A DNA stretch of 64,000 nt from Escherichia phage vB_EcoM_DalCa: sequence record NC_054908.1; one strand, written 5' to 3'. Shown here piece after piece: positions 4,647-52,426 of the stretch (its first letter is position 1; each line of letters begins with the position of its first letter). The notes under the pieces are model-generated. The model worked only from the letters and a program-made list of their open reading frames with translations. It was not told where the DNA came from and did not search any database. Both the position numbers and the translations under genes were made by a program.

Positions 4647-4722
4647 TGGTCGAGGCAGTAGGGATCGAACCTACGACCTAGGACTTAGAAGGTCCTTGCT
4701 CTTCCTTCTGAGCTATGCCCCG
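4647..4722 (-). tRNA. tRNA-Arg (anticodon UCU)
   Basis: manual cloverleaf: acceptor CGGGGCA/TGCCTCG, D-stem GCTC/GAGC, anticodon loop CTTCTAA, T-loop TTCGATC, CCA encoded. Confidence 0.85.
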
Positions 4723-4726
4723 TAAT

Positions 4727-4802
4727 TGGGGTGACCGATGGGAGTCGAACCCATGACTACGAGAATCACAATCTCGAGTTCTACCAACTGAACTACGGCC
4801 AC
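4727..4802 (-). tRNA. tRNA-His (anticodon GUG)
   Basis: acceptor GTGGCCG/CGGTCAC, anticodon loop TTGTGAT, T-loop TTCGACT, discriminator C, CCA encoded; no G at -1. Confidence 0.8.
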
Positions 4803-4916
4803 ATTAATACCTACTCCAACAATCAAGATGTCTTCACACGAAATTAAGAGAAGAGTGATCAGTTCAACCCCTATAATCGCGTCAAGTAGATATTAATGTG
4901 ACAGTTGTCACAAATT

Positions 4917-4991
4917 TGGCGGACGTGATAGGATTCGAACCTATAACCAATCGCTTAACAGGCGATCGCTCTGCCATTGAGCTACACATCC
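4917..4991 (-). tRNA. tRNA-Asn (anticodon GUU)
   Basis: acceptor GGATGTG/CACGTCC, anticodon loop CTGTTAA, T-loop TTCGAAT, CCA encoded. Confidence 0.8.
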
Positions 4992-4995
4992 AAAT

Positions 4996-5082
4996 TGGTG
5001 GGGAGTGGTGGAGTCGAACCACCCGAGTCGCAATGACAATGGATTTACAGTCCACACCGCTACCTCTACGGGATAACTCCCC
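4996..5082 (-). tRNA. tRNA-Tyr (anticodon GUA), long variable arm
   Basis: acceptor GGGGAGT/ACTCCCC, anticodon loop CTGTAAA, T-arm GGTGG-TTCGACT-CCACC, CCA encoded. Confidence 0.8.
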
Positions 5083-5091
5083 AAATTAATT

Positions 5092-5166
5092 TGGTGGCCC
5101 TGGGTGGAATTGAACCACCATCTGGCGATTATGAGTCGCTTGCTTGAACCTTCCAGCTACAGGGCC
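5092..5166 (-). tRNA. tRNA with CAU anticodon (Ile-lysidine type or elongator Met)
   Basis: acceptor GGCCCTG/CAGGGCC, anticodon loop CTCATAA, T-loop TTCAATT; occupies the tRNA-Ile position of the T4 array. Confidence 0.75.
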
Positions 5167-5167
5167 T

Positions 5168-5243
5168 TGGTGCTGATTGACGGAATCGAACCGCCGACCT
5201 TCTCATTACAAGTGAGTTGCTCTACCTACTGAGCTAAATCAGC
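5168..5243 (-). tRNA. tRNA-Thr (anticodon UGU)
   Basis: acceptor GCTGATT/AATCAGC, anticodon loop CTTGTAA, T-loop TTCGATT, CCA encoded. Confidence 0.85.
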
Positions 5244-5248
5244 AAAAC

Positions 5249-5338
5249 TGGCGGAGGCGATAGGATTTGAACCTATGAGTCGCCGGAGCGACTGCCGGTT
5301 TTCAAGACCGGTGCATTAAACCACTCTGCCACGCCTCC
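5249..5338 (-). tRNA. tRNA-Ser (anticodon UGA), long variable arm
   Basis: acceptor GGAGGCG/CGCCTCC, anticodon stem-loop CCGGT-CTTGAAA-ACCGG, T-loop TTCAAAT, CCA encoded. Confidence 0.85.
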
Positions 5339-5340
5339 AG

Positions 5341-5414
5341 TCTCCGTGGCAGGATTTGAACCTACGACATTCTACTCCCAAAGCAGACGCTCTACCAAAC
5401 TGAGCTACACGGAG
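5341..5414 (-). tRNA. tRNA-Pro (anticodon UGG), no encoded CCA
   Basis: acceptor CTCCGTG/CACGGAG, anticodon loop TTTGGGA, T-loop TTCAAAT; 2 nt from tRNA-Ser 5' end. Confidence 0.85.
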
Positions 5415-5424
5415 TAAATTAAAT

Positions 5425-5498
<74 letters not shown>

Positions 5499-5503
5499 AA
5501 ATT

Positions 5504-5590
5504 TGGTGCGAGAAGTGGGACTCGAACCCACAAGGAAATCATTCCGCAGCATTTTAAGTGCTGTGCCTTTACCAATTTGGCCATTCTCGC
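5504..5590 (-). tRNA. tRNA-Leu (anticodon UAA), long variable arm
   Basis: acceptor GCGAGAA/TTCTCGC, anticodon stem-loop CAGCA-CTTAAAA-TGCTG, T-loop TTCGAGT, CCA encoded. Confidence 0.85.
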
Positions 5591-5591
5591 G

Positions 5592-5664
5592 CTGGGAATA
5601 AAGGACTCGAACCTTTGCATCCTGGAATCAAAATCCAGTGCCTTACCAACTTGGCTAATTCCCA
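5592..5664 (-). tRNA. tRNA-Gln (anticodon UUG), no encoded CCA
   Basis: acceptor TGGGAAT/ATTCCCA, anticodon loop TTTTGAT, T-loop TTCGAGT; 1 nt from tRNA-Leu 5' end. Confidence 0.85.
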
Positions 5665-11346: not shown

Positions 11347-13057
11347 TAACCTTAATTGGTTTGTTGGTGTTGTTGAAGATAGAATGGACCCATTAAAATT
11401 AGGTCGTGTTCGTGTTCGTGTGGTTGGTCTGCATCCACCTCAAAGAGCACAAGGCGATGTAATGGGTATTCCAACTGAAAAATTACCATGGATGTCAGTT
11501 ATTCAACCTATAACTTCTGCAGCAATGTCTGGAATTGGAGGTTCTGTTACTGGACCGGTAGAAGGAACTAGAGTTTATGGTCATTTTTTAGACAAATGGA
11601 AAACTAACGGAATTGTCCTTGGCACGTATGGTGGAATAGTTCGCGAAAAACCGAATAGACTTGAAGGATTTTCTGACCCAACTGGGCAATATCCTAGACG
11701 TTTAGGAAATGATACTAATGTATTAAACCAAGGCGGAGAAGTAGGATATGATTCGTCTTCTAATATTATCCAAGATAGCAATCTAGACACTGCGATAAAT
11801 CCTGATGATAGACCGCTATCAGAGATTCCAACTGATGATAATCCAAATATGTCAATGGCTGAAATGCTTCGCCGTGATGAAGGATTAAGACTAAAAGTCT
11901 ATTGGGATACAGAAGGATATCCGACAATTGGTATTGGTCATCTTATCATAAAGCAGCCAGTTCGTGATATGGCTCAAATTAATAAAGTTTTATCGAAACA
12001 AGTTGGTCGTGAAATTACTGGAAACCCAGGTTCTATTACAATGGAAGAAGCGACGACTTTATTTGAACGTGATTTGGCTGATATGCAAAGGGATATTAAA
12101 TCACATTCTAAAGTAGGACCAGTCTGGCAAGCTGTCAACCGTTCTCGTCAAATGGCATTAGAAAATATGGCGTTTCAGATGGGTGTTGGCGGTGTAGCTA
12201 AATTTAACACAATGTTAACTGCTATGTTAGCAGGAGATTGGGAAAAAGCATATAAAGCCGGTCGTGATTCATTGTGGTATCAACAAACAAAAGGCCGTGC
12301 ATCCCGTGTTACCATGATTATTCTTACAGGTAATTTGGAATCATATGGTGTTGAAGTGAAAACCCCAGCTAGGTCTCTATCAGCAATGGCTGCTACTGTA
12401 GCTAAATCTTCTGACCCGGCTGACCCTCCTATTCCAAATGACTCGAGAATTTTATTCAAAGAACCAGTTTCTTCATATAAAGGCGAATATCCTTATGTGC
12501 ATACAATGGAAACTGAAAGCGGACATATCCAAGAATTTGATGATACCCCTGGGCAAGAACGATACAGATTAGTTCATCCGACTGGAACTTATGAAGAAGT
12601 ATCACCGTCAGGAAGAAGAACAAGAAAAACTGTCGATAATTTGTATGATATAACCAACGCTGATGGTAATTTTTTGGTAGCCGGTGATAAAAAGACTAAC
12701 GTCGGTGGATCAGAAATTTATTACAACATGGATAATCGTCTTCACCAAATAGATGGAAGCAATACAATATTTGTACGTGGCGATGAAACTAAGACGGTTG
12801 AAGGTAATGGAACTATCCTAGTTAAAGGTAATGTTACTATTGTAGTTGAAGGTAATGCTGACATCACAGTTAAAGGAGATGCTACCACTTTAGTTGAAGG
12901 TAATCAAACTAATACAGTAAATGGAAATCTTTCTTGGAAAGTTGCTGGGACAGTTGATTGGGACGTTGGCGGTGATTGGACAGAAAAAATGGCATCTATG
13001 AGTTCTATTTCATCCGGTCAATACACAATTGATGGATCGAGGATTGACATTGGCTAA
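11330..13057 (+). CDS. 5: gp5 baseplate hub subunit and tail lysozyme
   Basis: 575 aa; central lysozyme-like segment (DTEGYPTIGIGH) and C-terminal VxGxxxxx beta-helix repeats. Confidence 0.95.
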   Translation: MEMISNNLNWFVGVVEDRMDPLKLGRVRVRVVGLHPPQRAQGDVMGIPTEKLPWMSVIQPITSAAMSGIGGSVTGPVEGTRVYGHFLDKWKTNGIVLGTYGGIVREKPNRLEGFSDPTGQYPRRLGNDTNVLNQGGEVGYDSSSNIIQDSNLDTAINPDDRPLSEIPTDDNPNMSMAEMLRRDEGLRLKVYWDTEGYPTIGIGHLIIKQPVRDMAQINKVLSKQVGREITGNPGSITMEEATTLFERDLADMQRDIKSHSKVGPVWQAVNRSRQMALENMAFQMGVGGVAKFNTMLTAMLAGDWEKAYKAGRDSLWYQQTKGRASRVTMIILTGNLESYGVEVKTPARSLSAMAATVAKSSDPADPPIPNDSRILFKEPVSSYKGEYPYVHTMETESGHIQEFDDTPGQERYRLVHPTGTYEEVSPSGRRTRKTVDNLYDITNADGNFLVAGDKKTNVGGSEIYYNMDNRLHQIDGSNTIFVRGDETKTVEGNGTILVKGNVTIVVEGNADITVKGDATTLVEGNQTNTVNGNLSWKVAGTVDWDVGGDWTEKMASMSSISSGQYTIDGSRIDIG

Positions 13058-13586
13058 TATACTTCCAATGAGCACTGATTTAGGAGAATCCATGGAAGGT
13101 TCTTCTATCGACGTCACCTTTACCGCTCAATTAGAAACAGGTGAAACGTTAGTATCTATAAATATAACTAGTTACGAAGAAACTCCTGGGGTTTTAGTAG
13201 AAGAAAATCGCTTATATGGAACATATGAATCTGTGTTTGGATTTGGAAATGACGCGTTGAAATATCGTTTAGGCGATGAATTTAAAACTGCTGCTTCATG
13301 GGAAGAACTTCCTACTGATTCTGATACTCAGTTGTATTTGTGGAAAGCTCCTCAAAATCTCCAGAAGACATTCACTTACGAAGTAACATTAATATATGAC
13401 TACCAAGAACAAAGTGAATCTGGAGGTTCTGGCAGTAATTCTAGGTCATCTTCTGATACTACTGAACCGACTGATCCTCCTGCTCCAGTAAGAAAAACTC
13501 TAGTTAAAAATTACACAAAAACTATAGTTGGAAATTGGAGTCGTTGGGCTAATAAATTAAGAAGCTATGTATATGAGAGGTCATAA
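13029..13586 (+). CDS. 5.1: gp5.1-like hypothetical protein
   Basis: ORF between gene 5 and 5.4; Ser/Gly-rich linker; start codon uncertain (overlaps gene 5 end). Confidence 0.55.
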
Positions 13587-24904: not shown

Positions 24905-26419
<1,515 letters not shown>

Positions 26420-31362: not shown

Positions 31363-33342
31363 ATGACTTTATTATCTCCGGGCATTGAGCTCAAAGAAAC
31401 TACGGTTCAAAGCACCGTGGTTAATAACTCTACTGGTACAGCAGCTTTGGCCGGTAAATTCCAGTGGGGTCCTGCTTTTCAGATTAAACAGGTTACAAAC
31501 GAAGTAGATTTAGTTAATACTTTTGGTCAACCAACCGCTGAAACTGCTGACTATTTTATGTCTGCGATGAATTTCTTGCAGTACGGAAATGACTTACGAG
31601 TAGTTCGTGCTGTTGATAGAGATACCGCTAAAAACTCATCGCCAATTGCTGGTAATATTGAATACACAATTTCTACCCCAGGTAGTAACTATGCGGTTGG
31701 AGATAAAATCACGGTCAAATATGTTTCAGATGATATTGAAACTGAAGGTAAAATTACTGAAGTAGACGCAGATGGAAAAATTAAGAAAATTAATATTCCT
31801 ACTGCAAAAATTATCGCTAAAGCAAAAGAAGTCGGTGAATACCCGGAATTAGGTTCTAACTGGACTGCGGAAATTTCTTCATCTTCCTCTGGTTTAGCTG
31901 CAGTAATAACTCTTGGAAAAATTATTACTGATTCTGGTATTTTATTAGCTGAAATTGAAAATGCTGAAGCTGCTATGACAGCGGTTGACTTTCAAGCAAA
32001 TCTTAAAAAATACGGAATTCCAGGAGTAGTAGCTCTTTATCCAGGCGAATTAGGCGATAAAATTGAAATTGAAATCGTATCTAAAGCTGACTATGCAAAA
32101 GGAGCTTCTGCATTACTCCCAATTTATCCAGGTGGTGGTACTCGTGCATCTACTGCCAAAGCAGTGTTTGGATATGGACCGCAAACTGATTCACAGTACG
32201 CTATTATAGTTCGTCGCAATGATGCTATTGTTCAAAGCATTGTTCTTTCAACTAAGCGTGGTGAAAAAGATATTTACGATAGTAACATCTATATTGATGA
32301 CTTTTTCGCAAAAGGTGGTTCAGAATATATTTTCGCAACTGCGCAAAACTGGCCAGAAGGCTTCTCTGGAATTTTAACTCTGTCTGGTGGATTATCATCA
32401 AATGCTGAAGTAACAGCAGGAGATTTGATGGAAGCTTGGGACTTCTTTGCTGACCGCGAATCTGTTGACGTTCAGTTGTTTATTGCAGGTTCTTGTGCCG
32501 GTGAATCTCTTGAAACAGCATCTACTGTCCAAAAACATGTTGTTTCAATTGGTGATGCTCGTCAAGATTGCTTAGTATTGTGCTCACCTCCGCGTGAAAC
32601 TGTAGTTGGAATTCCTGTAACTCGTGCAGTAGATAATTTAGTTAACTGGAGAACTGCAGCAGGTTCATACACTGATAATAACTTTAATATCAGTTCAACC
32701 TACGCAGCAATTGATGGTAACTACAAATATCAGTATGACAAATATAATGATGTGAATCGTTGGGTTCCATTAGCAGCTGATATTGCCGGTTTATGCGCAA
32801 GAACTGATAACGTATCTCAGACTTGGATGTCTCCAGCTGGTTATAATCGCGGCCAGATTCTTAACGTTATTAAACTTGCTATTGAAACTCGCCAAGCTCA
32901 GCGCGACCGTTTATACCAAGAAGCTATCAACCCAGTGACTGGTACAGGTGGTGATGGTTACGTATTATATGGTGATAAAACAGCTACTTCTGTTCCTTCT
33001 CCATTTGATCGTATTAACGTTCGTCGTCTGTTTAATATGTTGAAAACGAACATCGGACGTAGTTCAAAATATCGTTTGTTCGAATTAAACAACGCGTTTA
33101 CTCGTTCATCATTCCGCACAGAAACTGCCCAGTACTTACAGGGAATTAAAGCTCTCGGTGGAATTTATGAATATCGTGTAGTTTGCGATACAACAAATAA
33201 CACTCCGTCAGTAATTGATAGAAATGAGTTTGTTGCAACATTCTACATTCAACCGGCTAGAAGCATTAACTACATTACCTTGAACTTCGTAGCAACTGCT
33301 ACTGGTGCAGATTTCGATGAGTTAACTGGTCTTGCTGGTTAA
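31363..33342 (+). CDS. 18: gp18 contractile tail sheath protein
   Basis: 659 aa; synteny. Confidence 0.95.
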   Translation: MTLLSPGIELKETTVQSTVVNNSTGTAALAGKFQWGPAFQIKQVTNEVDLVNTFGQPTAETADYFMSAMNFLQYGNDLRVVRAVDRDTAKNSSPIAGNIEYTISTPGSNYAVGDKITVKYVSDDIETEGKITEVDADGKIKKINIPTAKIIAKAKEVGEYPELGSNWTAEISSSSSGLAAVITLGKIITDSGILLAEIENAEAAMTAVDFQANLKKYGIPGVVALYPGELGDKIEIEIVSKADYAKGASALLPIYPGGGTRASTAKAVFGYGPQTDSQYAIIVRRNDAIVQSIVLSTKRGEKDIYDSNIYIDDFFAKGGSEYIFATAQNWPEGFSGILTLSGGLSSNAEVTAGDLMEAWDFFADRESVDVQLFIAGSCAGESLETASTVQKHVVSIGDARQDCLVLCSPPRETVVGIPVTRAVDNLVNWRTAAGSYTDNNFNISSTYAAIDGNYKYQYDKYNDVNRWVPLAADIAGLCARTDNVSQTWMSPAGYNRGQILNVIKLAIETRQAQRDRLYQEAINPVTGTGGDGYVLYGDKTATSVPSPFDRINVRRLFNMLKTNIGRSSKYRLFELNNAFTRSSFRTETAQYLQGIKALGGIYEYRVVCDTTNNTPSVIDRNEFVATFYIQPARSINYITLNFVATATGADFDELTGLAG

Positions 33343-33358
33343 TACGGTGCATTCTAAA

Positions 33359-33376
33359 GGCCTGTTTCGGCAGGCC
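33359..33376 (+). terminator. stable UUCG-tetraloop hairpin after gene 18 (no U-run)
   Basis: GGCCTGT-TTCG-GCAGGCC; directly followed by late promoter. Confidence 0.35.
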
Positions 33377-33377
33377 A

Positions 33378-33385
33378 TATAAATA
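33378..33385 (+). promoter_or_regulatory. late promoter TATAAATA (distal, gene 19)
   Basis: exact TATAAATA. Confidence 0.5.
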
Positions 33386-33436
33386 CACTATATCCTTAAT
33401 TCTTTAATTCTATATGCCCTAGGTTAAACATAGGGA

Positions 33437-33444
33437 TATAAATA
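33437..33444 (+). promoter_or_regulatory. late promoter TATAAATA (proximal, gene 19)
   Basis: exact TATAAATA 15 nt upstream of ATG 33459. Confidence 0.5.
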
Positions 33445-33458
33445 CTACAGAGGCTAAT

Positions 33459-33950
33459 ATGTTTGTAGATGATGTAACACGAGCGTTTGAATCTGGTGAT
33501 TTTGCTCGACCTAACTTATTCCAAGTAGAAATTTCTTATCTTGGACAAAATTTTACATTCCAATGTAAAGCCACTGCTTTACCAGCTGGTATTGTAGAAA
33601 AAATTCCAGTCGGATTTATGAACCGTAAAATTAACGTAGCAGGCGATCGTACATTCGATGACTGGACTGTTACAGTAATGAACGATGAAGCTCATGATGC
33701 TCGCCAGAAGTTTGTTGATTGGCAAAGCATTGCTGCTGGTCAAGGAAACGAAATTACTGGTGGAAAACCTGCAGAGTATAAAAAGAGCGCTATTGTTCGT
33801 CAATATGCTCGTGATGCTAAAACAGTAACAAAAGAAATTGAAATTAAAGGTCTGTGGCCTACTAACGTGGGTGAACTTCAATTAGATTGGGATTCAAACA
33901 ATGAAATCCAAACCTTTGAAGTAACTCTTGCTCTCGATTATTGGGAATAA
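33459..33950 (+). CDS. 19: gp19 tail tube protein
   Basis: 163 aa; synteny. Confidence 0.95.
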   Translation: MFVDDVTRAFESGDFARPNLFQVEISYLGQNFTFQCKATALPAGIVEKIPVGFMNRKINVAGDRTFDDWTVTVMNDEAHDARQKFVDWQSIAAGQGNEITGGKPAEYKKSAIVRQYARDAKTVTKEIEIKGLWPTNVGELQLDWDSNNEIQTFEVTLALDYWE

Positions 33951-33982
33951 AATGAATGGGGAGAAATCCCCATCCTGCTTAA

Positions 33983-35607
<1,625 letters not shown>

Positions 35608-35608
<1 letters not shown>

Positions 35609-35847
35609 TGGAAGGTTTAATTGAAGCTATTAAATCAAACGACCTCGTAGCCGCTCGTAAATTATTTGCTGAAGCCATGGCTGCAAGAACGACTGATTTA
35701 ATTAAAGAAGAAAAAATCGCTATCGCTCGTAATTTCTTAATCGAAGGTGAAGAACCTGATGACGAGGATGATGACGAAGACGAAGATAGTGATGATAAAG
35801 ACGACAAAAAAGACAAAGACTCTGACGAAGACGAGGATGATGAATAA
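35608..35847 (+). CDS. 67: gp67 prohead core protein
   Basis: 79 aa with poly-acidic C-terminus. Confidence 0.88.
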
Positions 35848-36272
35848 TGCTTCTGATCCCTGAAACTCATGAATTAGTTCTCGAGAATGTCGAAGCACTT
35901 ATTCCTGAAGCACAGGGTCGCTTTGACGAATTGTCTTCTGCTTTAAATAAAGACGATATAAATACAATTGTCGAGAATATGCTTGATGATGAAACTGATT
36001 TAGCGGTTGCATTAGCTTCTATTAATGAAAATATGCCGTTAAATGAATTTATCGTTAAACATGTTTCTGCCCGTGGTGAAATTACTCGCACTAAAGATCG
36101 CAAAACCCGCGAACGTAATGCATTTCAAACTACCGGGTTGTCTAAAGCAAAACGTAGACAAATTGCTCGTAAAGCTACCAAAACGAAGATTGCCAATCCA
36201 GCAGGTCAATCTCGTGCTCAGCGTAAGCGTAAAAAAGCTCTTAAACGCCGTAAAGCATTAGGATTAAGCTAA
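35847..36272 (+). CDS. 68: gp68 prohead core protein
   Basis: 141 aa, basic C-terminus; synteny. Confidence 0.88.
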
Positions 36273-36910
36273 TGAATGAACCCCAATTACTAATTGAAAC
36301 TTGGGGTCAACCTGGCGAAATTATTGATGGCGTACCAATGCTTGAATCTCATGATGGAAAAGACTTAGGTTTAAAACCGGGTTTATACATCGAAGGAATA
36401 TTCATGCAAGCGGAAGTCGTCAATAGAAATAAACGTCTTTATCCAAAACGTATATTAGAAAAAGCGGTAAAAGACTATATTAATGAGCAAGTTTTAACTA
36501 AACAAGCTCTCGGAGAATTAAATCATCCTCCACGCGCTAATGTTGACCCGATGCAAGCCGCTATCATTATAGAAGATATGTGGTGGAAAGGAAATGACGT
36601 ATACGGACGAGCTCGTGTTATTGAAGGTGACCACGGTCCTGGAGATAAATTAGCAGCTAATATTCGTGCCGGATGGATTCCAGGAGTTTCTTCTCGTGGA
36701 TTAGGTTCATTGACTGACACAAATAAAGGTTATCGTATCGTAAACGAAGGATTCAAATTAACTGTAGGTGTTGATGCAGTATGGGGTCCAAGTGCTCCAG
36801 ATGCATGGGTAACTCCTAAGGAAATTACCGAATCACAGACGGCGGAAGCCGATACAAGTGCCGATGACGCCTATATGGCTCTCGCAGAGGCCATGAAAAA
36901 AGCGTTATAA
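36272..36910 (+). CDS. 21: gp21 prohead core protease
   Basis: 212 aa; synteny 68-21-22. Confidence 0.93.
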   Translation: MNEPQLLIETWGQPGEIIDGVPMLESHDGKDLGLKPGLYIEGIFMQAEVVNRNKRLYPKRILEKAVKDYINEQVLTKQALGELNHPPRANVDPMQAAIIIEDMWWKGNDVYGRARVIEGDHGPGDKLAANIRAGWIPGVSSRGLGSLTDTNKGYRIVNEGFKLTVGVDAVWGPSAPDAWVTPKEITESQTAEADTSADDAYMALAEAMKKAL

Positions 36911-36913
36911 ATA
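36906..36913 (+). promoter_or_regulatory. late promoter TATAAATA (gene 22)
   Basis: exact TATAAATA overlapping gene 21 stop, 28 nt upstream of ATG 36941. Confidence 0.6.
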
Positions 36914-36940
36914 TTATTATCTAAACAACAGGACTACAAA

Positions 36941-37750
36941 ATGCTTAAAGAACAACTGATTGCCGAAGCGCAGAAAATTGATGCTTCCGTTGCTCTTGAT
37001 AGTATTTTCGAATCAGTTAATATTTCTCCGGAAGCAAAAGAAACTTTCGGCACTGTATTCGAAGCTACCGTCAAGCAGCACGCCGTTAAATTAGCTGAAT
37101 CTCATATCGCTAAAATTGCTGAAAAAGCAGAAGAAGAAGTAGAAAAAAATAAAGAAGAAGCAGAAGAAAAAGCTGAGAAGAAAATCGCTGAGCAAGCTTC
37201 TAAATTCCTTGACCATCTTGCAAAAGAATGGCTCACTGAAAATAAATTAGCAGTAGATAAAGGTATCAAAGCCGAACTGTTTGAATCCATGCTTGGTGGA
37301 TTGAAAGAGCTCTTCGTTGAACACAACGTTGTTGTTCCAGAAGAATCAGTTGATGTTGTAGCTGAAATGGAAGAAGAACTGCAAGAACATAAAGAAGAAT
37401 CAGCTCGTCTGTTCGAAGAACTCAATAAGCGTGACGCATATATCAATTATGTGCAGCGTGAAGTGGCATTGAGCGAAAGTACTAAAGATCTGACTGAGTC
37501 TCAAAAAGAAAAAGTCTCTGCTCTGGTCGAAGGTATGGATTATTCAGATGCATTCTCAAGTAAATTGAGTGCAATCGTAGAAATGGTGAAGAAATCTAAT
37601 AAAGATGAAAGCACTATTACTGAGAGTATAAATACTCCTGATACTGAAGCAGCCGGACTGAATTTCGTCACTGAAGCTGTAGAAGATAAATCTGCACAAG
37701 GTGCAGAAGATATTGTAAGTGTATATGCGAAAGTCGCATCTCGTTTCTAA
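36941..37750 (+). CDS. 22: gp22 prohead core scaffold protein
   Basis: 269 aa acidic coiled-coil protein. Confidence 0.93.
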   Translation: MLKEQLIAEAQKIDASVALDSIFESVNISPEAKETFGTVFEATVKQHAVKLAESHIAKIAEKAEEEVEKNKEEAEEKAEKKIAEQASKFLDHLAKEWLTENKLAVDKGIKAELFESMLGGLKELFVEHNVVVPEESVDVVAEMEEELQEHKEESARLFEELNKRDAYINYVQREVALSESTKDLTESQKEKVSALVEGMDYSDAFSSKLSAIVEMVKKSNKDESTITESINTPDTEAAGLNFVTEAVEDKSAQGAEDIVSVYAKVASRF

Positions 37751-37768: not shown

Positions 37769-39319
37769 ATGACTATCAAAACTAAAGCTGAACTTTTGAA
37801 CAAATGGAAGCCATTACTGGAAGGTGAAGGTTTACCGGAAATTGCTAATAGCAAACAAGCGATTATCGCTAAAATCTTTGAAAACCAGGAAAAAGATTTC
37901 CAGACAGCTCCGGAATATAAAGACGAAAAAATTGCTCAGGCATTCGGTTCTTTCTTAACAGAAGCTGAAATCGGTGGTGACCACGGTTACAATGCTACCA
38001 ACATCGCTGCAGGTCAGACTTCTGGAGCAGTAACTCAGATTGGCCCAGCTGTTATGGGTATGGTACGTCGTGCTATTCCTAACCTGATTGCTTTCGATAT
38101 TTGTGGTGTTCAGCCAATGAATAACCCGACTGGCCAGGTATTCGCACTGCGTGCAGTATATGGTAAAGACCCAATCGCTGCTGATGCTAAAGAAGCATTC
38201 CACCCAATGTATGGTCCAGATGCAATGTTCTCTGGTCAGGGTGCTGCTAAGAAATTCCCAGCTCTGGCTGCTAGCACACAAACCAAAGTAGGTGATATCT
38301 ATACTCACTTCTTCCAGGAAACTGGTACTGTATATCTGCAAGCTTCTGCTCAAGTAACAATTAGTTCTACTGCAGATGATGCAGAAATTAAGAAACAAAT
38401 GGAAGCTGGCGCATTGGTAGAAATCGCTGAAGGTATGGCTACTTCTATCGCTGAACTTCAGGAAGGTTTCAACGGTTCTACCGATAACCCATGGAATGAA
38501 ATGGGCTTCCGTATCGATAAACAAGTTATCGAAGCTAAATCTCGTCAGCTGAAAGCTGCTTACTCTATCGAATTAGCACAAGACCTCCGCGCTGTTCACG
38601 GTATGGATGCTGATGCTGAACTGTCTGGTATTCTGGCTACCGAAATTATGCTGGAAATCAACCGCGAAGTTGTTGATTGGATTAACTACTCCGCTCAGGT
38701 TGGTAAATCTGGTATGACCCTGACTCCGGGTTCTAAAGCTGGTGTATTTGACTTCCAGGACCCAATCGATATTCGTGGTGCTCGCTGGGCAGGTGAATCC
38801 TTTAAAGCTCTGTTGTTCCAGATTGACAAAGAAGCAGTTGAAATTGCTCGTCAGACTGGTCGCGGCGAAGGTAACTTCATTATCGCTTCCCGTAACGTAG
38901 TTAACGTTCTGGCTTCAGTTGATACCGGCATTTCTTATGCTGCACAAGGTCTGGCTACTGGCTTTAACACTGATACTACCAAGTCAGTATTTGCTGGTGT
39001 TCTGGGTGGTAAATACCGTGTATATATCGACCAGTATGCTAAACAGGATTATTTCACCGTAGGTTATAAAGGTCCGAACGAAATGGATGCTGGTATTTAC
39101 TATGCTCCATATGTAGCTCTGACTCCGCTGCGTGGTTCTGATCCGAAGAACTTCCAACCGGTAATGGGATTCAAAACTCGTTACGGTATCGGTATCAACC
39201 CATTTGCAGAATCCGCTGCTCAGGCTCCGGCTTCTCGCATCCAGAGCGGTATGCCTTCTATTCTGAATAGCCTTGGTAAAAACGCTTACTTCCGCCGTGT
39301 ATATGTTAAAGGTATCTAA
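37769..39319 (+). CDS. 23: gp23 major capsid protein
   Basis: 516 aa; N-terminus MTIKTKAELLNKWKPLLEGEG; differs from T4 by a short internal indel. Confidence 0.97.
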   Translation: MTIKTKAELLNKWKPLLEGEGLPEIANSKQAIIAKIFENQEKDFQTAPEYKDEKIAQAFGSFLTEAEIGGDHGYNATNIAAGQTSGAVTQIGPAVMGMVRRAIPNLIAFDICGVQPMNNPTGQVFALRAVYGKDPIAADAKEAFHPMYGPDAMFSGQGAAKKFPALAASTQTKVGDIYTHFFQETGTVYLQASAQVTISSTADDAEIKKQMEAGALVEIAEGMATSIAELQEGFNGSTDNPWNEMGFRIDKQVIEAKSRQLKAAYSIELAQDLRAVHGMDADAELSGILATEIMLEINREVVDWINYSAQVGKSGMTLTPGSKAGVFDFQDPIDIRGARWAGESFKALLFQIDKEAVEIARQTGRGEGNFIIASRNVVNVLASVDTGISYAAQGLATGFNTDTTKSVFAGVLGGKYRVYIDQYAKQDYFTVGYKGPNEMDAGIYYAPYVALTPLRGSDPKNFQPVMGFKTRYGIGINPFAESAAQAPASRIQSGMPSILNSLGKNAYFRRVYVKGI

Positions 39320-39402: not shown

Positions 39403-40686
39403 ATGGCTAAAATCAACGAACTTCTGCGCGAATCAACCACAACGAATAGCAACTCAATCGGTCGCCCAAATCTCGTTGCTTTGACTCGCGCTACCACTAA
39501 ATTAATATATTCTGACATTGTAGCAACGCAAAGAACTAATCAACCTGTTGCTGCTTTTTATGGTATCAAATACCTTAACCCAGACAATGAATTTACATTT
39601 AAAACTGGTGCTACTTATGCTGGCGAAGCTGGATATGTAGACCGAGAACAAATCACAGAATTAACAGAAGAGTCTAAATTAACTCTCAATAAGGGCGATT
39701 TATTCAAATATAATAATATCGTTTATAAAGTATTAGAAGATACACCATTTGCTGATATTGAAGAAAGCGATTTAGAATTAGCTCTTCAGATTGCAATTGT
39801 TCTTTTAAAGGTTCGTCTATTTTCTGACGCAGCGTCAACAAGCAAATTTGAAAGCTCTGATAGTGAAATTGCGGATGCTAGATTCCAGATTAATAAATGG
39901 CAAACCGCAGTTAAATCTCGTAAACTTAAAACTGGTATCACAGTTGAATTAGCACAAGATTTAGAAGCAAATGGATTCGATGCTCCTAATTTCTTGGAAG
40001 ATTTGCTTGCAACTGAAATGGCAGATGAAATCAATAAAGATATTCTGCAGTCTTTGATTACAGTGTCAAAACGCTATAAAGTTACAGGAATTACTGATAC
40101 TGGATTCATCGATTTGAGTTATGCATCTGCACCTGAAGCTGGTCGTTCATTATACCGAATGGTATGTGAAATGGTTTCGCATATCCAAAAAGAATCAACT
40201 TATACAGCAACGTTCTGTGTTGCTTCAGCTCGTGCTGCTGCGATTCTTGCTGCATCAGGTTGGTTAAAACATAAACCAGAAGATGACAAATATCTTTCAC
40301 AAAATGCCTACGGGTTCTTAGCTAATGGTTTACCGCTTTATTGCGATACTAACAGCCCATTAGATTATGTAATCGTTGGCGTAGTAGAAAATATCGGTGA
40401 AAAAGAAATTGTTGGATCAATTTTCTATGCTCCGTATACAGAAGGTCTTGACTTAGATGACCCTGAACATGTAGGTGCATTTAAAGTTGTAGTTGATCCA
40501 GAAAGTTTGCAGCCATCTATCGGTTTATTAGTTAGATATGCTTTATCTGCAAATCCTTACACCGTAGCAAAAGATGAAAAAGAAGCAAGAGTAATTGATG
40601 GTGGAGACATGGATAAAATGGCGGGTCGTTCAGATTTGTCTGTTTTATTAGGTGTTAAACTACCAAAAATTATCATTGATGAATAA
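39403..40686 (+). CDS. 24: gp24 capsid vertex protein
   Basis: 427 aa, gp23 paralog; synteny. Confidence 0.95.
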   Translation: MAKINELLRESTTTNSNSIGRPNLVALTRATTKLIYSDIVATQRTNQPVAAFYGIKYLNPDNEFTFKTGATYAGEAGYVDREQITELTEESKLTLNKGDLFKYNNIVYKVLEDTPFADIEESDLELALQIAIVLLKVRLFSDAASTSKFESSDSEIADARFQINKWQTAVKSRKLKTGITVELAQDLEANGFDAPNFLEDLLATEMADEINKDILQSLITVSKRYKVTGITDTGFIDLSYASAPEAGRSLYRMVCEMVSHIQKESTYTATFCVASARAAAILAASGWLKHKPEDDKYLSQNAYGFLANGLPLYCDTNSPLDYVIVGVVENIGEKEIVGSIFYAPYTEGLDLDDPEHVGAFKVVVDPESLQPSIGLLVRYALSANPYTVAKDEKEARVIDGGDMDKMAGRSDLSVLLGVKLPKIIIDE

Positions 40687-40692
40687 AACAAA

Positions 40693-40716
40693 GGGACCTT
40701 TCGGTCCCTTTTTATT
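40693..40716 (+). terminator. bidirectional intrinsic terminator between convergent genes 24 and rnlB
   Basis: GGGACC-TTTC-GGTCCC with T-run on plus strand and A/T-rich run on minus. Confidence 0.65.
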
Positions 40717-40871
40717 TAACTTACCAATTCAATCCAAGCCGGACGAAGTACATCTTGTACCATTTTAACTAATTCCTTTTTAATCAAAGAAGGATTATCT
40801 GCTTGAGTTAGAGTAATACCTTCACGAGAAGTTTCTTCCAAAATATCTTGAACAGTTAGTCCCATCACCTT
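40716..40871 (-). pseudogene. rnlB: rnlB C-terminal domain remnant (51 codons in frame downstream of internal TGA)
   Basis: frame continues KVMGLTVQDILEETSREGITLTQADNPSLIKKELVKMVQDVLRPAWIELVS to TAA at 40718-40716. Confidence 0.6.
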
Positions 40872-41720
40872 TCAAAAATCCTTCGGACCAATTTCACCAA
40901 TTTTAGAAATAACGTTATTTACTCGGTTCAGTGTAACGTAGCAAGCTAAAATTCCCACCAATTTGTTATCAGCTTCTGATAGTTCAACTTTAGCTTTAAT
41001 AGGCTTATCAGACTTTTTCTTTTCACTAAATTTGGAATTCTTGCATTTGATGGCTACACGATTTCCATTATGAAGCCAAGAAGGACAACAAGGTTTCAAT
41101 ACATATCCTTCAGCGGTAAATACTTCGCCTTTGGCTTCAGCTTTCCAAACACATTTGTTAGCGTCAACTAATCCTGCATGGTCTACTGTAAAATTATAAT
41201 CTTGGACGACAGAATCTAAATCATTTGGCAATTTAATAAGCTCTTCAAATTTACCGCGACCTAAAAGTGGAGCCATTTTAAATTTAAATGTATTACAAAA
41301 TGATTCCATCATATAATCATCGACATAAGTCACATCACCACTTTCTGTAGTGACAATAATGTCAAATACATAAAAATCTTTATCGCCATAATCGACATTC
41401 TTCTGAATGCCAGGTCCAGCGAATTCGCCAAAGACTTGATAAGATACAACCGCTGAGGTTTCCATAATATCTTGTACTGCTTTAATAGAATCTTCGTAAT
41501 TCTTTAGAATAATTTCATACCCAAAGAAATCTTCAGCAGGAAGAATTGGTCCAGTACGTTTAGCGCAAGTTACTTTATCACGCTCAATAATCAATGAGAA
41601 ATTTGTGCCGTGAATCTTTTCACGAGCTACCCACTCCCCACCAGTCAATCCCAAGCTATAAAGTTTTTCAATAAATTTAGAGTTGTAATGATTTTCAAGA
41701 CTGCTATACTTTTTAAACAT
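40872..41720 (-). CDS. rnlB: RNA ligase 2 (Rnl2) nucleotidyltransferase portion, truncated at codon 283 by in-frame TGA
   Basis: N-terminus [12 protein letters not shown] and KIHGTN adenylyltransferase motif; 282 codons + TGA + 51 codons = 334, the T4 Rnl2 length. Confidence 0.8.
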
Positions 41721-41729
41721 AATTAATCC

Positions 41730-42008
41730 TCAAAATGTAATTTCTAACCAATCACCATCACGCTGATCACTATTGACTTTAAAGCTGAATCCTTCTTTTC
41801 TCAGCCAATCACCAATTTCTTCAGTAATCAATTTATCACGAGCAATACAATAATAACTAAAATGTGTTTTACCTTGTTCAGCTGCTTTATTAGCAAGTTC
41901 CGAAAAATCTTTAATAAAACATTCTAGTTTAAACTGTTTACTTTTAAGTGCTTTTTCTCGCAATTGATTAGCAAAAGATTCATTTTCATAAAGATCATAC
42001 TGTTCCAT
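41730..42008 (-). CDS. 24.2: hypothetical protein (gene 24.2 position)
   Basis: 92-aa ORF; synteny between rnlB and hoc. Confidence 0.6.
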   Translation of the reverse strand: MEQYDLYENESFANQLREKALKSKQFKLECFIKDFSELANKAAEQGKTHFSYYCIARDKLITEEIGDWLRKEGFSFKVNSDQRDGDWLEITF

Positions 42009-42210
42009 TTTTCACCTTTTTATTGATATGTCTTTTTCTATAGACGACTTTTTCTCGAGTTTCAAATTTATTCTTAGCAGTCATAGCTCGAGCCCATAAT
42101 ACAGCCACTTCTTTTGCCTGTAAGTTTAATTCACGAGCAATTTCAATGAATGACTTTCCAGACTCATGAAGCGTAAACACCACAACCTCAGTTCTCATAA
42201 TTAATCTCAT
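41995..42210 (-). CDS. 24.3: small basic protein with helix-turn-helix-like segment (gene 24.3 position)
   Basis: 71-aa ORF; segment SGKSFIEIARELNLQAKEV; synteny. Confidence 0.55.
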   Translation of the reverse strand: MRLIMRTEVVVFTLHESGKSFIEIARELNLQAKEVAVLWARAMTAKNKFETREKVVYRKRHINKKVKNGTV

Positions 42211-42299
42211 GTTATCGAGTTGGTGCCATTATATACATCATTTTCTGATTGTGTTTTGCGTGCTTTCAAAATGAAGAAAGGGGCCGAAGCCCCTTATGA

Positions 42300-43715
42300 T
42301 TATGGATAGGTATAGATGATACCAGTTTCTAAAGCAGTTTTATGAATGATGTATCCATTACGCGATTCTTGGACATCAACTTCTGGATAGTCTTTAATCA
42401 TCTTCTGAAGAGTGTAACGATGCAGGTAGTATTTACTATCTGGGTCGTCAGTTTTCCAATCTTTACCTTCTTCGGTCATTTTTTGGATTTCATCCATAAC
42501 CCACCAACCGCACCAGATATAAGCTGAAGTACGATGTGGAAGAGGATGAACATAAGGTAGTTCACCTTCTGGTTCAATTGGAGTCCGTTCAGCAATAACA
42601 ACTTCAGCTGTTGAACTAATTGTCTTTGAAGTGTAATTATCTTTAGTTAATACTGCTTCAACTTTAATTGTATGAGTACCCGCTGAGGAGGTATCAATAC
42701 TATAAGTATTAGTAGAATTACTTTCTGCTACGTTGTCTTTCTTCCAAGAGTACACAATATTAGTATCACCAGGAGCACCAGTAACAGATGCTGTTAAAGT
42801 TGCAGTTCCACCAACAGTAGTATTAACTGATGGCGGAGATAAAGAAATGGTGGCACTATTAAATGTCGCATTATTAGTTACTACTGTTGCTTCTGCTGAA
42901 ATTTCTTTTGTAACATAATTTGTTGCAGAAACAGATGCGGTGCATTTAAGAGTTTTACTTCCGACTTCGGTCGGAGTGAATTTATACGTAGCAGAAGTTG
43001 CATCCGGAATATTACTGTCATCCATTGACCATTGGAATGTTATAGTAGCACCTGAAGGTGCACTAGAGACATTTGCAGTTAAAGTAATAGGAACACCAAA
43101 GACTGTAGTCGGAGACTCGGGTGTAATTTTTAGCGTCGAAGAATTAGCCTTTTTATTTACAGTCAAAGAAACCGCTGATGATTCTACTGTTTTATCAACG
43201 TAATCAGTTGCAGTCACTGTGACAGAGCAAGTTATAGACTTAGTTCCTTCAGTTGTTGGTGTATATTCAAAGGTTGATTGCTTTTGACCGTCAACATCGA
43301 CCCCGTCAACTTTCCATGTATAATCAATAGCAGCACCAATAGGTTGATTGCTTACATTAGCAGTGAATGTTGTTGCTGTTCCAATTTCTACTGCCGCAGG
43401 AGAAGCCGGAGTAACAGTGATAGTGGAATTATTTTCTTTCTTATTAACAGTGATAGTTGTTGATGCTTCAGCTATTTCCGGATCTCCTGCGGAAAGTGTA
43501 TTAGTTGCAACCACTTTAATTTTTTTTGTTCCTGCTGGAGAAGCAAGAGTATAATCCATTGTAGCAGCCGTAGAGCCCTGTGTTATATCATCTACAGTCC
43601 AGACGTATGTAATAGTACCGTCTGGGGTTTCACCTGCAGGTGTAGCAGTGAATGTTTGTGAACCTCCAATAACCCCTGTAGGAGTTAGAGGAGATAACGT
43701 GACAGTGAATGCCAT
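42300..43715 (-). CDS. hoc: Hoc highly immunogenic outer capsid protein, four Ig-like repeats plus capsid-binding domain
   Basis: 471 aa; four ~90-aa Thr/Ser/Val-rich beta-sandwich-like repeats then conserved C-terminal domain (ELPYVHPLPHR, WCGWWVMDEIQK). Confidence 0.8.
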   Translation of the reverse strand: MAFTVTLSPLTPTGVIGGSQTFTATPAGETPDGTITYVWTVDDITQGSTAATMDYTLASPAGTKKIKVVATNTLSAGDPEIAEASTTITVNKKENNSTITVTPASPAAVEIGTATTFTANVSNQPIGAAIDYTWKVDGVDVDGQKQSTFEYTPTTEGTKSITCSVTVTATDYVDKTVESSAVSLTVNKKANSSTLKITPESPTTVFGVPITLTANVSSAPSGATITFQWSMDDSNIPDATSATYKFTPTEVGSKTLKCTASVSATNYVTKEISAEATVVTNNATFNSATISLSPPSVNTTVGGTATLTASVTGAPGDTNIVYSWKKDNVAESNSTNTYSIDTSSAGTHTIKVEAVLTKDNYTSKTISSTAEVVIAERTPIEPEGELPYVHPLPHRTSAYIWCGWWVMDEIQKMTEEGKDWKTDDPDSKYYLHRYTLQKMIKDYPEVDVQESRNGYIIHKTALETGIIYTYP

Positions 43716-43724
43716 AAGTTATCC

Positions 43725-44405
43725 TTATTTTAATGTTATGAAAGAAGAATTACGAGTTTCGCGAATTAGAACTGATCCATCGCGATTAATATAATAAATT
43801 AAGCTAAATAATGTTTGGTGTGCTGACGCATGTTCAAAACTAGTTGGGTGAGATTTCCAATCCGGAGTTTCAGCAATCCATTGATAAATCCACCAAGGAA
43901 CAGTGCAGAATCCTGGATTTTTTCCAATCAGTTGAAGATTCGGACTAAAGTTTTCCGGAAGAGTAAATACAGACGGCTTTTCAGATTCAATAATCTCAGC
44001 TACAGCTTGTTCAAACTTTTCTTCAACAAACGGAGTGTCTTCAATCAAAACTGAGGTATTTTCAGGAATTTTATCCGTTTCTACTACTTCAATTTTAATG
44101 TCAGATTTAACCGGAGAATCAATCAAAAGTGCTGCTTCTGGATTGACTTCTTCATCGTCATATTTTAATCCCTCTGCGGCATCAGCAGCATCAATTAAGT
44201 CTTTAATAGATAACCCATCAGTCTCCGGCATAGGTTCACTAGCGAGCTTCTGGAGGGCTTCTTCAATATCAACAACGATATTATCAAAAGATTTATTCTT
44301 TTTGACCTTTATACCAAACTGTTCAGCATATTCAGCTAATTTAGCTTTAGCTTCTTTGTTATCATCAAGAGCCTTCAGCTCTGCAATATAATCTTTATCT
44401 ATCAT
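43725..44405 (-). CDS. inh: Inh-like protein (inhibitor of prohead protease)
   Basis: 226-aa acidic protein in the T4 inh position. Confidence 0.65.
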   Translation of the reverse strand: MIDKDYIAELKALDDNKEAKAKLAEYAEQFGIKVKKNKSFDNIVVDIEEALQKLASEPMPETDGLSIKDLIDAADAAEGLKYDDEEVNPEAALLIDSPVKSDIKIEVVETDKIPENTSVLIEDTPFVEEKFEQAVAEIIESEKPSVFTLPENFSPNLQLIGKNPGFCTVPWWIYQWIAETPDWKSHPTSFEHASAHQTLFSLIYYINRDGSVLIRETRNSSFITLK

Positions 44406-47152: not shown

Positions 47153-47180
47153 ATTATACCACGTTTTAACGTGAAGCATT
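47153..47180 (-). promoter_or_regulatory. MotA-dependent middle promoter for uvsY
   Basis: minus-strand MotA box AATGCTTCA, 13-nt spacer, TATAAT; about 45 nt upstream of uvsY ATG. Confidence 0.6.
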
Positions 47181-47577
47181 ATACTCTATTACTGGAAGCC
47201 AATTGCAGTTTTATCTGCTCAATATCATCAGGGTTATCGATGACCGAACAGCGTATTTCTACTATCAGAGTATAATCATCATAAACTGGTATCACATTAA
47301 CTGCTAATTTATCAATACGTGGCTCATAGTTTCTTACTGCGCTTTCGATATTGCGCTCAACTGTGTCAGCAGTAAGAGGAGTCATATTTTCAAAAAGCTG
47401 GTCTGATAAATCACATCCAAATTCAGGGTCAAACGGTCTTGAACCTTTTCTTGTTGTAATAATTCCCAAAAGACTGTTTTTAATTGACCTTAATCCAAGC
47501 GATCTGGAAACATCTTTGTTCCAATCCATTTTCATTTCTGGGTCAATGTCAGAATAAAGCTTATTAATATTTGCCAT
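47179..47577 (-). CDS. 25: gp25 baseplate wedge protein
   Basis: 132 aa; synteny. Confidence 0.93.
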   Translation of the reverse strand: MANINKLYSDIDPEMKMDWNKDVSRSLGLRSIKNSLLGIITTRKGSRPFDPEFGCDLSDQLFENMTPLTADTVERNIESAVRNYEPRIDKLAVNVIPVYDDYTLIVEIRCSVIDNPDDIEQIKLQLASSNRV

Positions 47578-50176: not shown

Positions 50177-50657
50177 TAAAGAAGTTTCTATTCCTAAGAT
50201 GGGTCTTAAACATTATAACATTTTAAAAGATGTTAAAGGTCCTGATGAAAATTTAAAGCTTCTTATTGATTCTATTTGTCCAAATTTATCACCGGCAGAA
50301 GTTGATTTCGTTTCTATTCATTTATTGGAATTTAATGGAAAGATTAAATCTCGTAAAGAAATAGATGGCTATACTTATGACATTAATGATGTTTATGTAT
50401 GCCAAAGATTAGAATTTCAATACCAAGGAAATACATTTTATTTTAGACCTCCTGGAAAATTTGAACAATTTTTAACGGTGAGCGATATGTTATCTAAATG
50501 CTTGCTTAAGGTCAACGATGAAGTTAAAGAAATTAATTTTCTTGAGATGCCAGCATTCGTTTTAAAATGGGCAAATGATATTTTTACAACTTTAGCAATT
50601 CCTGGCCCTAATGGTCCAATAACTGGAATTGGCAATATTATTGGATTATTTGAATGA
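50124..50657 (+). CDS. 28: gp28 baseplate hub distal subunit
   Basis: 177 aa from ATG 50124 (AAGG RBS); overlaps gene 27 end in another frame. Confidence 0.75.
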
Positions 50658-52426
50658 AAAAGCCACAAGAAATGCAAACGATGCGTAGAAAAGTTATTTC
50701 AGATAATAAACCAACACAGGAAGCGGCTAAATCCGCTTCCAATACTTTATCTGGACTTAATGACATTTCTACAAAATTGGATGATGCTCAAGCTGCTTCT
50801 GAATTAATAGCTCAAACCGTTGAAGAAAAATCGAATGAAATAATTGGAGCAATTGACAATGTAGAAAGCGCAGTGAGTGATACTACTGCTGGTTCTGAGT
50901 TAATTGCTGAAACTGTAGAAATTGGCAACAATATTAATAAAGAAATCGGTGAATCACTCGGAAGTAAATTAGATAAATTAACGAGTTTACTAGAACAAAA
51001 AATTCAAACAGCTGGAATTCAACAGACAGGAACCAGCTTAGCTGTAGTCGAAAGTGCTATTCCCGTTAAAGTTGTTGAGGATGATACAGCTGAATTTGTT
51101 GGTCCATTATTACCAGCTCCTGAAGCAGTTAATAATGATCCTGACGCTGATTTTTTCCCTGCCCCTCAACCAGTTGAACCTAAGCGAGAGTCACCGGAAG
51201 AAAAACAGAAAAAAGAAGCATTTAATTTAAAATTATCTCAAGCTTTAGATAAATTAACAAAGACTGTTGATTTTGGATTTAAAAAATCCATTTCAATTAC
51301 TGATAAAATATCAAGCATGCTATTTAAGTATACTGTCAGTGCTGCTATTGAAGCTGCTAAAATGGTTGCATTAATAATGGCTGTTGTTATTGGAATAGAC
51401 CTACTGATGGTTCATTTTAAATATTGGTCAGATAAATTTTCAAAAGCCTGGGATTTGTTTAGCACTGATTTTAAAACTTTTTCAAGCGAAACCGGAACTT
51501 GGGGTCCTTTATTACAGAGCATCTTTGAATCTATTGATGAAATTAAAAAGTTCTGGGAAGCGGGAGATTGGGGCGGTTTGACGGTAGCTATTGTAGAAGG
51601 GCTTGGAAAGGTTCTTTATAATTTAGGAGAACTTATTCAGCTTGGAATGGCTAAATTATCAGCAGCAATTCTTCGAGTTATTCCTGGTATGAAAGATACT
51701 GCTGACGAAGTAGAAGGAAGAGCGCTGGAAAATTTCCAAAATTCTACTGGAGCATCTCTCAATAAAGAAGACCAGGAAAAAGTTGCGAATTATCAAGATA
51801 AACGAATGAATGGAGACCTTGGTCCGATAGCAGAAGGACTAGACAAAATTGCGAACTGGAAAACTCGTGCATCTAACTGGATTCGTGGTGTTGATAATAA
51901 AGAAGCATTGACAACTGATGAAGAACGCGCAGCAGAAGAAGAAAAATTAAAGCAGCTTTCACCAGAAGAAAGAAAAAATGCTTTAATGAAGGCTAATGAA
52001 GCCCGTGCCGCGATGATTCGTTTTGAAAAATATGCTGATTCAGCTGATATGAGTAAAGACTCAACAGTTAAATCAATTGAAGCCGCTCATGAAGACCTTA
52101 AAAAACGGATGAATGACCCGGATTTAAATAATTCACCTGCAGTTAAAAAGGAGCTTGCTTCTAGATTTGCTAAAATTGATGCTACTTATCAAGAGCTTAA
52201 GAAAAATCAACCTGAGGCCAAACCTGAAACTTCTGCTAAATCGCCAGAAGCAAAACAAGTCCAGGTAATAGAAAAGAACAAAGCACAGCAAGCTCCTGTT
52301 CAACAAGCATCTCCTTCAATCAATAATACTAATAATGTTATTAAGAAAAATACTGTCGTTCATAATATGACACCCGTAACGAGCACAACTGCTCCTGGTG
52401 TATTTGGCGCGACTGGAGTTAATTAA
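50654..52426 (+). CDS. 29: gp29 baseplate hub / tail length determinant
   Basis: 590 aa; synteny. Confidence 0.93.
   Translation: MKKPQEMQTMRRKVISDNKPTQEAAKSASNTLSGLNDISTKLDDAQAASELIAQTVEEKSNEIIGAIDNVESAVSDTTAGSELIAETVEIGNNINKEIGESLGSKLDKLTSLLEQKIQTAGIQQTGTSLAVVESAIPVKVVEDDTAEFVGPLLPAPEAVNNDPDADFFPAPQPVEPKRESPEEKQKKEAFNLKLSQALDKLTKTVDFGFKKSISITDKISSMLFKYTVSAAIEAAKMVALIMAVVIGIDLLMVHFKYWSDKFSKAWDLFSTDFKTFSSETGTWGPLLQSIFESIDEIKKFWEAGDWGGLTVAIVEGLGKVLYNLGELIQLGMAKLSAAILRVIPGMKDTADEVEGRALENFQNSTGASLNKEDQEKVANYQDKRMNGDLGPIAEGLDKIANWKTRASNWIRGVDNKEALTTDEERAAEEEKLKQLSPEERKNALMKANEARAAMIRFEKYADSADMSKDSTVKSIEAAHEDLKKRMNDPDLNNSPAVKKELASRFAKIDATYQELKKNQPEAKPETSAKSPEAKQVQVIEKNKAQQAPVQQASPSINNTNNVIKKNTVVHNMTPVTSTTAPGVFGATGVN

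Follow-up and report, generated by a model that had tools for sequence, protein, structure and literature searches.

We find that rnlB, the gene for RNA ligase 2 (Rnl2), carries an in-frame TGA at codon 283 in Escherichia phage vB_EcoM_DalCa (NC_054908.1), of which we analyzed one 64-kb stretch of DNA, referred to here as the window. We consider it likely that this TGA is a real, very recent and lineage-private nonsense allele that cuts the ligase short in an otherwise intact rnlB. Judged by its overall similarity to sequenced phages, the window is from a Tequatrovirus, and its best overall phage match is Paracelsus (BASEL Bas36; 98.5% over 24 kb). We propose that a mutation from GGA (Gly283) to TGA would have arisen in the T4-type rnlB of a Tequatrovirus related to Paracelsus.

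The interrupted frame lies on the minus strand at 40716..41720. It consists of 334 codons plus a TAA and is broken at codon 283: from its ATG start at 41720, it runs through 282 sense codons, the TGA at 40874..40872, another 51 sense codons and finally the TAA at 40718..40716. An earlier note on this DNA had described a minus-strand frame of 335 codons with the length of Rnl2, and the translation matches that description. The local context given there for codon 283 (GAT TTT TGA AAG GTG ATG GGA) reads the same on rereading the sequence. When the translation was compared to all PDB chains with phmmer, residues 1-334 aligned to T4 Rnl2 (2hvq; E = 6e-223), a similarity that is, as scored by this alignment, far beyond chance. 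The motifs of the Rnl2 family can all be read in the translation: KIHGTN at residues 35-40, FGEF at 97-100 (motif III), FD at 119-120 (motif IIIa), EGYVLK at 204-209 (motif IV) and KCK at 225-227 (motif V). The first of these is the ligase motif that the earlier note had pointed out, and it is motif I with Lys35. The nucleotidyltransferase domain, which had been said to precede the stop as a whole, does so, and the RNA_ligase profile (PF09414) is complete at residues 29-226 (profile positions 2-170 of 171; 81.8 bits against a cut-off of 27). Relative to T4 Rnl2 (gp24.1; PDB 2HVQ/2HVR/2HVS and 1S68), the window gene has the same length, the same motifs, both Pfam domains and the same position between gene 24 and 24.2/hoc, and 329 of the 333 aligned sense codons encode the same residue. 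It differs in codon 283, which is TGA in the window and GGA in T4, and in the four substitutions A76E, N194K, Y212C and R217H, among which Y212C is private to this genome. The gene order gene 24 / rnlB / 24.2 / 24.3 / hoc is common to the window, to 10 related loci and to Paracelsus. From the translation, the 2hvq match, this synteny and the 99.6-99.7% nucleotide identity to intact relatives, the frame at 41720..40716 on the minus strand is identified as a T4-type rnlB (RNA ligase 2, gene 24.1), the orthologue of T4 gp24.1.

The wild-type codon at position 283 is evident from the relatives. The nearest rnlB records, those of phages Pinarejo, U115 and ESh30, are 99.6-99.7% identical to the window gene, each with 4 nucleotide differences over 1005 nt, and all three are intact 1005-nt genes with GGA at codon 283. 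Similarly, all ten syntenic loci that we aligned (from NCBI, ENA and Logan assemblies) encode a 334-aa Rnl2, and GGA is present at codon 283 in every one of the 13 closely examined relatives (the 10 aligned loci and the 3 nearest phage records). More distantly, Gly283 does not vary across 36 aligned homologues (56-99% identity), and none of them has a stop there. In the alignment with the T4 reference that had been called for earlier, a Gly stands opposite the stop, homology runs on to residue 334, and residues 284-334 are identical to those of T4 (phmmer alignment against 2hvq). Because the relatives carry GGA and an intact 334-aa Rnl2, one G-to-T transversion at nucleotide 847 of the gene (window 40874) created the premature TGA at 40872..40874 on the minus strand. 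The 51 codons past the stop are untouched and match T4 exactly, from which we infer that the change is very recent.

To ask how widely the stop is distributed, we used a 55-mer with the variable base at its centre, such that any 28-nt megablast seed must include that base. The T-allele 55-mer had no match among 50,697 phage records, a collection without the window's own genome, while the G-allele control matched 240 of these records. An exact-pattern scan for the T allele in metagenome contigs and GTDB genome contigs also returned none. A pattern scan of IMG/VR with N at the variable base, which admits any base, returned 1 contig. At the protein level, the 282-aa Rnl2 product is absent from an index of 153 billion genes. 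Across these collections, the codon-283 stop thus appears as private to this genome. The recent nonsense allele that the earlier note listed as one option is the reading that we favor, given GGA in the relatives, the private stop and the undamaged downstream codons: a one-base change has replaced the relatives' sense codon, and the flanks show no decay.

We next considered what the stop would do to the protein. With host RF2 acting at codon 283, translation would terminate there and Rnl2(1-282) would be released. This predicted product (40875..41720, minus strand) contains the full nucleotidyltransferase domain, the linker and helices 1 and 2 of the C-domain, based on the Pfam matches and the AlphaFold2 model of a homologue. 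In that model, which has a mean pLDDT of 85 and represents a 99%-identical homologue, the C-domain helices span residues 249-259, 264-274, 279-299 and 310-333. As modeled, the stop falls in the first turn of C-domain helix 3, and helix 4 is lost entirely, helix 3 for the most part. The C-domain profile PF18043 (T4_Rnl2_C) is correspondingly split by the stop: of its 82 positions, 2-38 are matched by the 282-aa ORF and 42-81 by the 50-aa remnant. An all-helical C-domain on one polypeptide is a feature of the Rnl2 family, and in the window it is incomplete unless the stop is read through. The remnant is an in-frame 50-codon ORF that opens at GTG 40868 (or ATG 40865) and extends over 40716..40868 on the minus strand; according to the ORF list and the alignment, in which residues 285-334 equal those of T4, it encodes the rest of helix 3 and helix 4. 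Taken alone, the remnant ORF scores 23.6 bits against PF18043, under the 27-bit cut-off. Within the lost part, eight residues are invariant in the 36 homologues (G283, G287, T289, D292, E296, E300, R326 and W329).

The biochemistry of truncated Rnl2 is documented for the fragment Rnl2(1-249), which seals pre-adenylylated ends and cannot adenylylate 5'-phosphate ends (PMC3884662, PMC3149579), as the earlier note had stated for C-terminally truncated Rnl2 in general. The N-terminal domain on its own suffices for step 1, in which the ligase is adenylylated, and for step 3, in which a pre-adenylylated end is sealed, and the C-domain is required for RNA 5'-adenylylation (step 2) and for binding to nicked duplexes (PMC3884662, PMC3149579). 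Rnl2(1-282) would keep the adenylyltransferase domain and helices 1-2, and step 2 and nick binding would go with the C-domain. Nick sealing should be abolished or much reduced because the stop cuts the C-domain that is needed for 5'-adenylylation and nick binding, and by analogy with the characterized fragment we expect overall nick sealing by Rnl2(1-282) to be lost or nearly lost. At best, the window product might resemble Rnl2(1-249) and retain self-adenylylation and the sealing of pre-adenylylated ends; at worst, it could be a misfolded null protein with half a helical bundle exposed. The laboratory enzyme Rnl2(1-249), or "T4 Rnl2 truncated", is like the window fragment in being a C-terminal truncation that keeps the whole adenylyltransferase domain, and the window fragment is expected by analogy to share its profile of steps 1 and 3 kept with step 2 and nick sealing defective. 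However, the window fragment runs on to residue 282, which adds C-domain helices 1-2 together with a single turn of helix 3, and its origin is a mutation, in contrast to the designed laboratory enzyme.

Loss of this gene's function would be tolerated by the phage, given that rnlB is dispensable in T-even phages and is last in its transcription unit. A bidirectional intrinsic terminator hairpin lies between the convergent gene 24 and rnlB (40690..40711, both strands), where it was found by a terminator scan and where it is annotated in related records. Because this terminator makes rnlB the last gene of its unit, the early stop has no polar effect on other genes. Elsewhere the Rnl2 family is uniformly 330-338 aa in length, and viable T-even phages with a disrupted rnlB have been sequenced repeatedly, which indirectly supports the dispensability of the gene. 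For instance, ACG-C40 has TGG to TGA at W215, HY03 has a 1-nt deletion near nucleotide 337, and one Logan assembly (SRR3067129_3512; L019) lacks 1 nt of an A-run near codon 273, which leaves a 285-aa product and an intact 49-aa ORF. Roughly 650 Tequatrovirus/Mosigvirus genomes match rnlB. The frequency of disruptions was sampled from annotations, and in an evenly spaced sample of 60 records we identified split "RNA ligase" annotations in BYEP02 (OR757454.1) and AV111 (OR352941.1). Two further clusters (P0096 and P0101) contain rnlB ORFs that are cut N-terminally. The disruptions in other T-even phages resemble the window allele in that they are point or indel breaks of a conserved gene in viable phages, and the one in ACG-C40 is also a TGA. 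They differ in being independent events at other positions, and G283* is found in none of them. As a separate observation, the T2 record PV648364.1 matches rnlB over 1001 nt rather than 1005 nt.

The stop is accompanied by other changes that are private to this genome. Aligned with ten relatives over 20 kb, the window shows 7 private substitutions and one private 15-bp in-frame deletion. Two of the substitutions are in rnlB (Y212C and G283*), three are synonymous, and two are missense changes in gp23 and gp25. The second change in rnlB, TAT to TGT at 41086 on the minus strand (Tyr212Cys), is private among the 10 relatives, and a 55-mer centred on it had no match in the phage collection; Tyr212 is the majority residue in the 36-homologue alignment and is not invariant. 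Protein-altering changes make up 4 of the 7 private substitutions versus 36 of the 231 remaining differences from Paracelsus (p = 0.017; Fisher test). Such an excess is expected from fresh mutations that selection has yet to filter, for example through plaque-purification bottlenecks, and equally from consensus errors. The deletion, at 38384/38385 in gene 23 (37769..39319, plus strand), leaves a gp23 of 516 aa in the window versus 521 aa in 10 of 10 relatives. It removes five residues (AKLDA-like), so that ...TADDAAKLDAEIKK... becomes ...TADDAEIKK..., and a direct repeat, GATGC[A/T]G, flanks it. The deletion junction is not spanned by any record in the phage collection. This looks like a genuine slippage mutation, and it therefore looks as if the lineage really has gathered private changes. 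Also in gp23, a private Ser to Asn change at codon 119 (window 38124; MNSPTGQ to MNNPTGQ) falls in the first quarter of the protein, presumably within or close to the Gol peptide, the activator of the Lit protease of e14. Lastly, the gene for the baseplate wedge protein gp25 (47179..47577, minus strand) carries a private Phe to Cys change (TTT to TGT) at window position 47249. Neither the 516-aa gp23 nor the gp25 with the Phe-to-Cys change is on record in the gene index.

Four other explanations of the stop have to be weighed against a real and recent nonsense allele. One is that the TGA is a sequencing or consensus error, such that the true codon is GGA, rnlB is intact and T4G2 was miscalled as T5G1 at 40874; we regard this as rather unlikely, and as an explanation to be taken seriously. 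The change from TTTTGG to TTTTTG is in a context that is classical for dislocation mutagenesis and is also that of miscalls at a homopolymer boundary, which some platforms make. However, it is a length-preserving substitution, and the rest of the assembly is unlike the output of platforms with homopolymer errors. When the Paracelsus CDS were mapped onto the 64-kb window, about 75 conserved CDS aligned over their full length and free of frameshifts, with an internal stop in rnlB only; because there is no frameshift in these CDS, the assembly is not indel-prone. An error would fit the fact that the T allele is a singleton in the collections searched, the presence of another private non-synonymous change within this 1-kb gene, and private changes that overall appear unfiltered by selection, but the same genome holds the 15-bp deletion between direct repeats, a private change that is clearly biological. 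The 1-nt homopolymer deletion in the L019 assembly, about 10 codons upstream of the site, may itself be an assembly artefact and would then point toward error, although genuine rnlB-disrupted phages are common enough. It is also conceivable that the truncation is a selected functional change, whether as an enzyme restricted to adenylyltransferase activity or AppRNA substrates, as a two-piece ligase, or through the removal of a protein that triggers a host defence or interferes with escape from one. We consider this highly improbable. Its setting would be the private capsid changes of the same lineage (the 5-residue deletion and S119N, possibly in the region sensed through Gol and Lit) and the change in gp25. 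A search of the literature for a function of Rnl2 in vivo, or for a connection with defence systems, found neither.

The remaining two explanations suppose that the ribosome gets past the stop. That rnlB is still functional, either by UGA readthrough or by re-initiation at GTG 40868 or ATG 40865 to give a two-piece ligase (282 aa plus 49-50 aa), is in our view very unlikely. UGA is the leakiest stop codon in E. coli, with readthrough of about 2-4% in K-12 reporters (PMC10570021). A few percent of ribosomes may accordingly decode the UGA by host tRNA-Trp and yield full-length G283W, but this would be ordinary leakiness, and it puts a Trp at an invariant Gly. For re-initiation, GTG 40868 and ATG 40865 are 3 and 6 nt past the TGA, and a Shine-Dalgarno-like AAGGA (40879..40883, minus strand), read from the sequence, lies upstream of them at distances of 10 nt (GTG) and 13 nt (ATG) and could serve both. 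However, these start codons and the AAGGA belong to ordinary coding sequence that all relatives share, and the AAGGA is not an adaptation because it is part of the normal coding sequence for PKDF. An intact 49-aa ORF likewise remains in the frameshift allele L019, where it overlaps the new stop (TGATG) and was called by a gene caller, but in the window the break is inside a helix and not between domains. The 51 undamaged codons downstream would suit a gene that still works, although they are simply explained by recency, and no relative has kept the stop. A stimulatory RNA structure is equally lacking: the 91 nt around and after the stop fold with an MFE of -16.7 kcal/mol, which is matched or bettered by 118 of 200 shuffles (z = +0.27). 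No SECIS-like hairpin past the TGA was seen in the fold analysis, and with the fold past the stop unremarkable, a selenocysteine or readthrough element is out. A suppressor tRNA encoded by the phage is out as well, since ARAGORN identifies 11 tRNAs in the window (4647-5664, minus strand) and none has a UCA anticodon, in agreement with the earlier note. Programmed recoding, by selenocysteine, TGA reassignment or ribosomal frameshifting at U UUU UGA, is next to impossible, its sole support being an in-frame TGA after a U-run. The 75 conserved genes of the window end in TAA (56), TGA (15) or TAG (4), and the adjacent gene 24.2, immediately upstream of rnlB, likewise ends in TTT TGA, so reassignment of TGA is excluded by its use as a terminator in 15 of 75 genes. 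A frameshift is excluded by the frames that it would enter, of which the +1 frame meets a TGA after 2 codons and the -1 frame meets one after 17, neither rejoining the conserved C-terminus. Moreover, relatives with identical flanks carry GGA. We reject programmed readthrough, selenocysteine insertion and recoding because TGA is a normal stop here, because the stop is unshared, and because there is neither an RNA structure nor a UCA tRNA; these points, together with the invariant Gly, also speak against the readthrough-dependent gene that the earlier note had entertained. Classical T4 opal (UGA) mutants are similar in that a one-base change makes a UGA in a phage gene, and they are subject to low-level suppression by host tRNA-Trp. 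They differ in having been selected as conditional-lethals, whereas the window allele affects a non-essential gene, comes from a natural isolate and implies no suppressor host.

The recent nonsense allele in rnlB is a known and common kind of variation. Like alleles of rnlB are already deposited, and it does not represent a new mechanism. As a private stop in a dispensable accessory gene, it is routine variation with little import for biology at large. It is one more data point that T-even phages lose Rnl2 function yet stay viable. The in vivo role of Rnl2 is unassigned (PMC3884662), and viable loss of the ligase fits this long-standing lack of an assigned role. If the truncation did turn out to be a selected change, it would give a first handle on the biological role of Rnl2. 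For annotation, the best label for the locus is disrupted rnlB, or pseudogene; entries for two "RNA ligase" genes or for a 282-aa ligase should be avoided. Those who obtain Rnl2 from this phage, or who use it in studies of RNA repair, should know of the allele.

The comparison with Paracelsus gave several further observations. The window is near-identical to Paracelsus at 31363-37747 and 41733-44405, where about 3,000 codons show 2-3 differences, all synonymous. It is diverged from Paracelsus at 39403-41720 and 50654-52423; the diverged genes are gene 24, rnlB, uvsW, the gp25/gp53-like genes and especially gp29 (116 codon differences). This mosaic relation suggests recombination patches. The 11-tRNA cluster is common to the window and Paracelsus; ARAGORN calls the gene at 5092-5166 (minus strand) a tRNA-Met (CAT), and the Paracelsus annotation has it as a tRNA-Ile that reads ATA with a lysidine-modified CAU. 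Relatives vary in their homing-endonuclease-like ORFs, which include SegE GIY-YIG ORFs between genes 23 and 24 or beside uvsW and NUMOD3 ORFs (in L007 at 12706-13368, and near uvsW in L010, L012, L014 and L015); none is present in the window between 31.7 and 52 kb. Finally, fibritin (wac; 24914-26416, plus strand) differs from that of Paracelsus by indels totalling 16 residues, at 96% identity, and besides gp23 it is the only large in-frame length difference among the structural genes.
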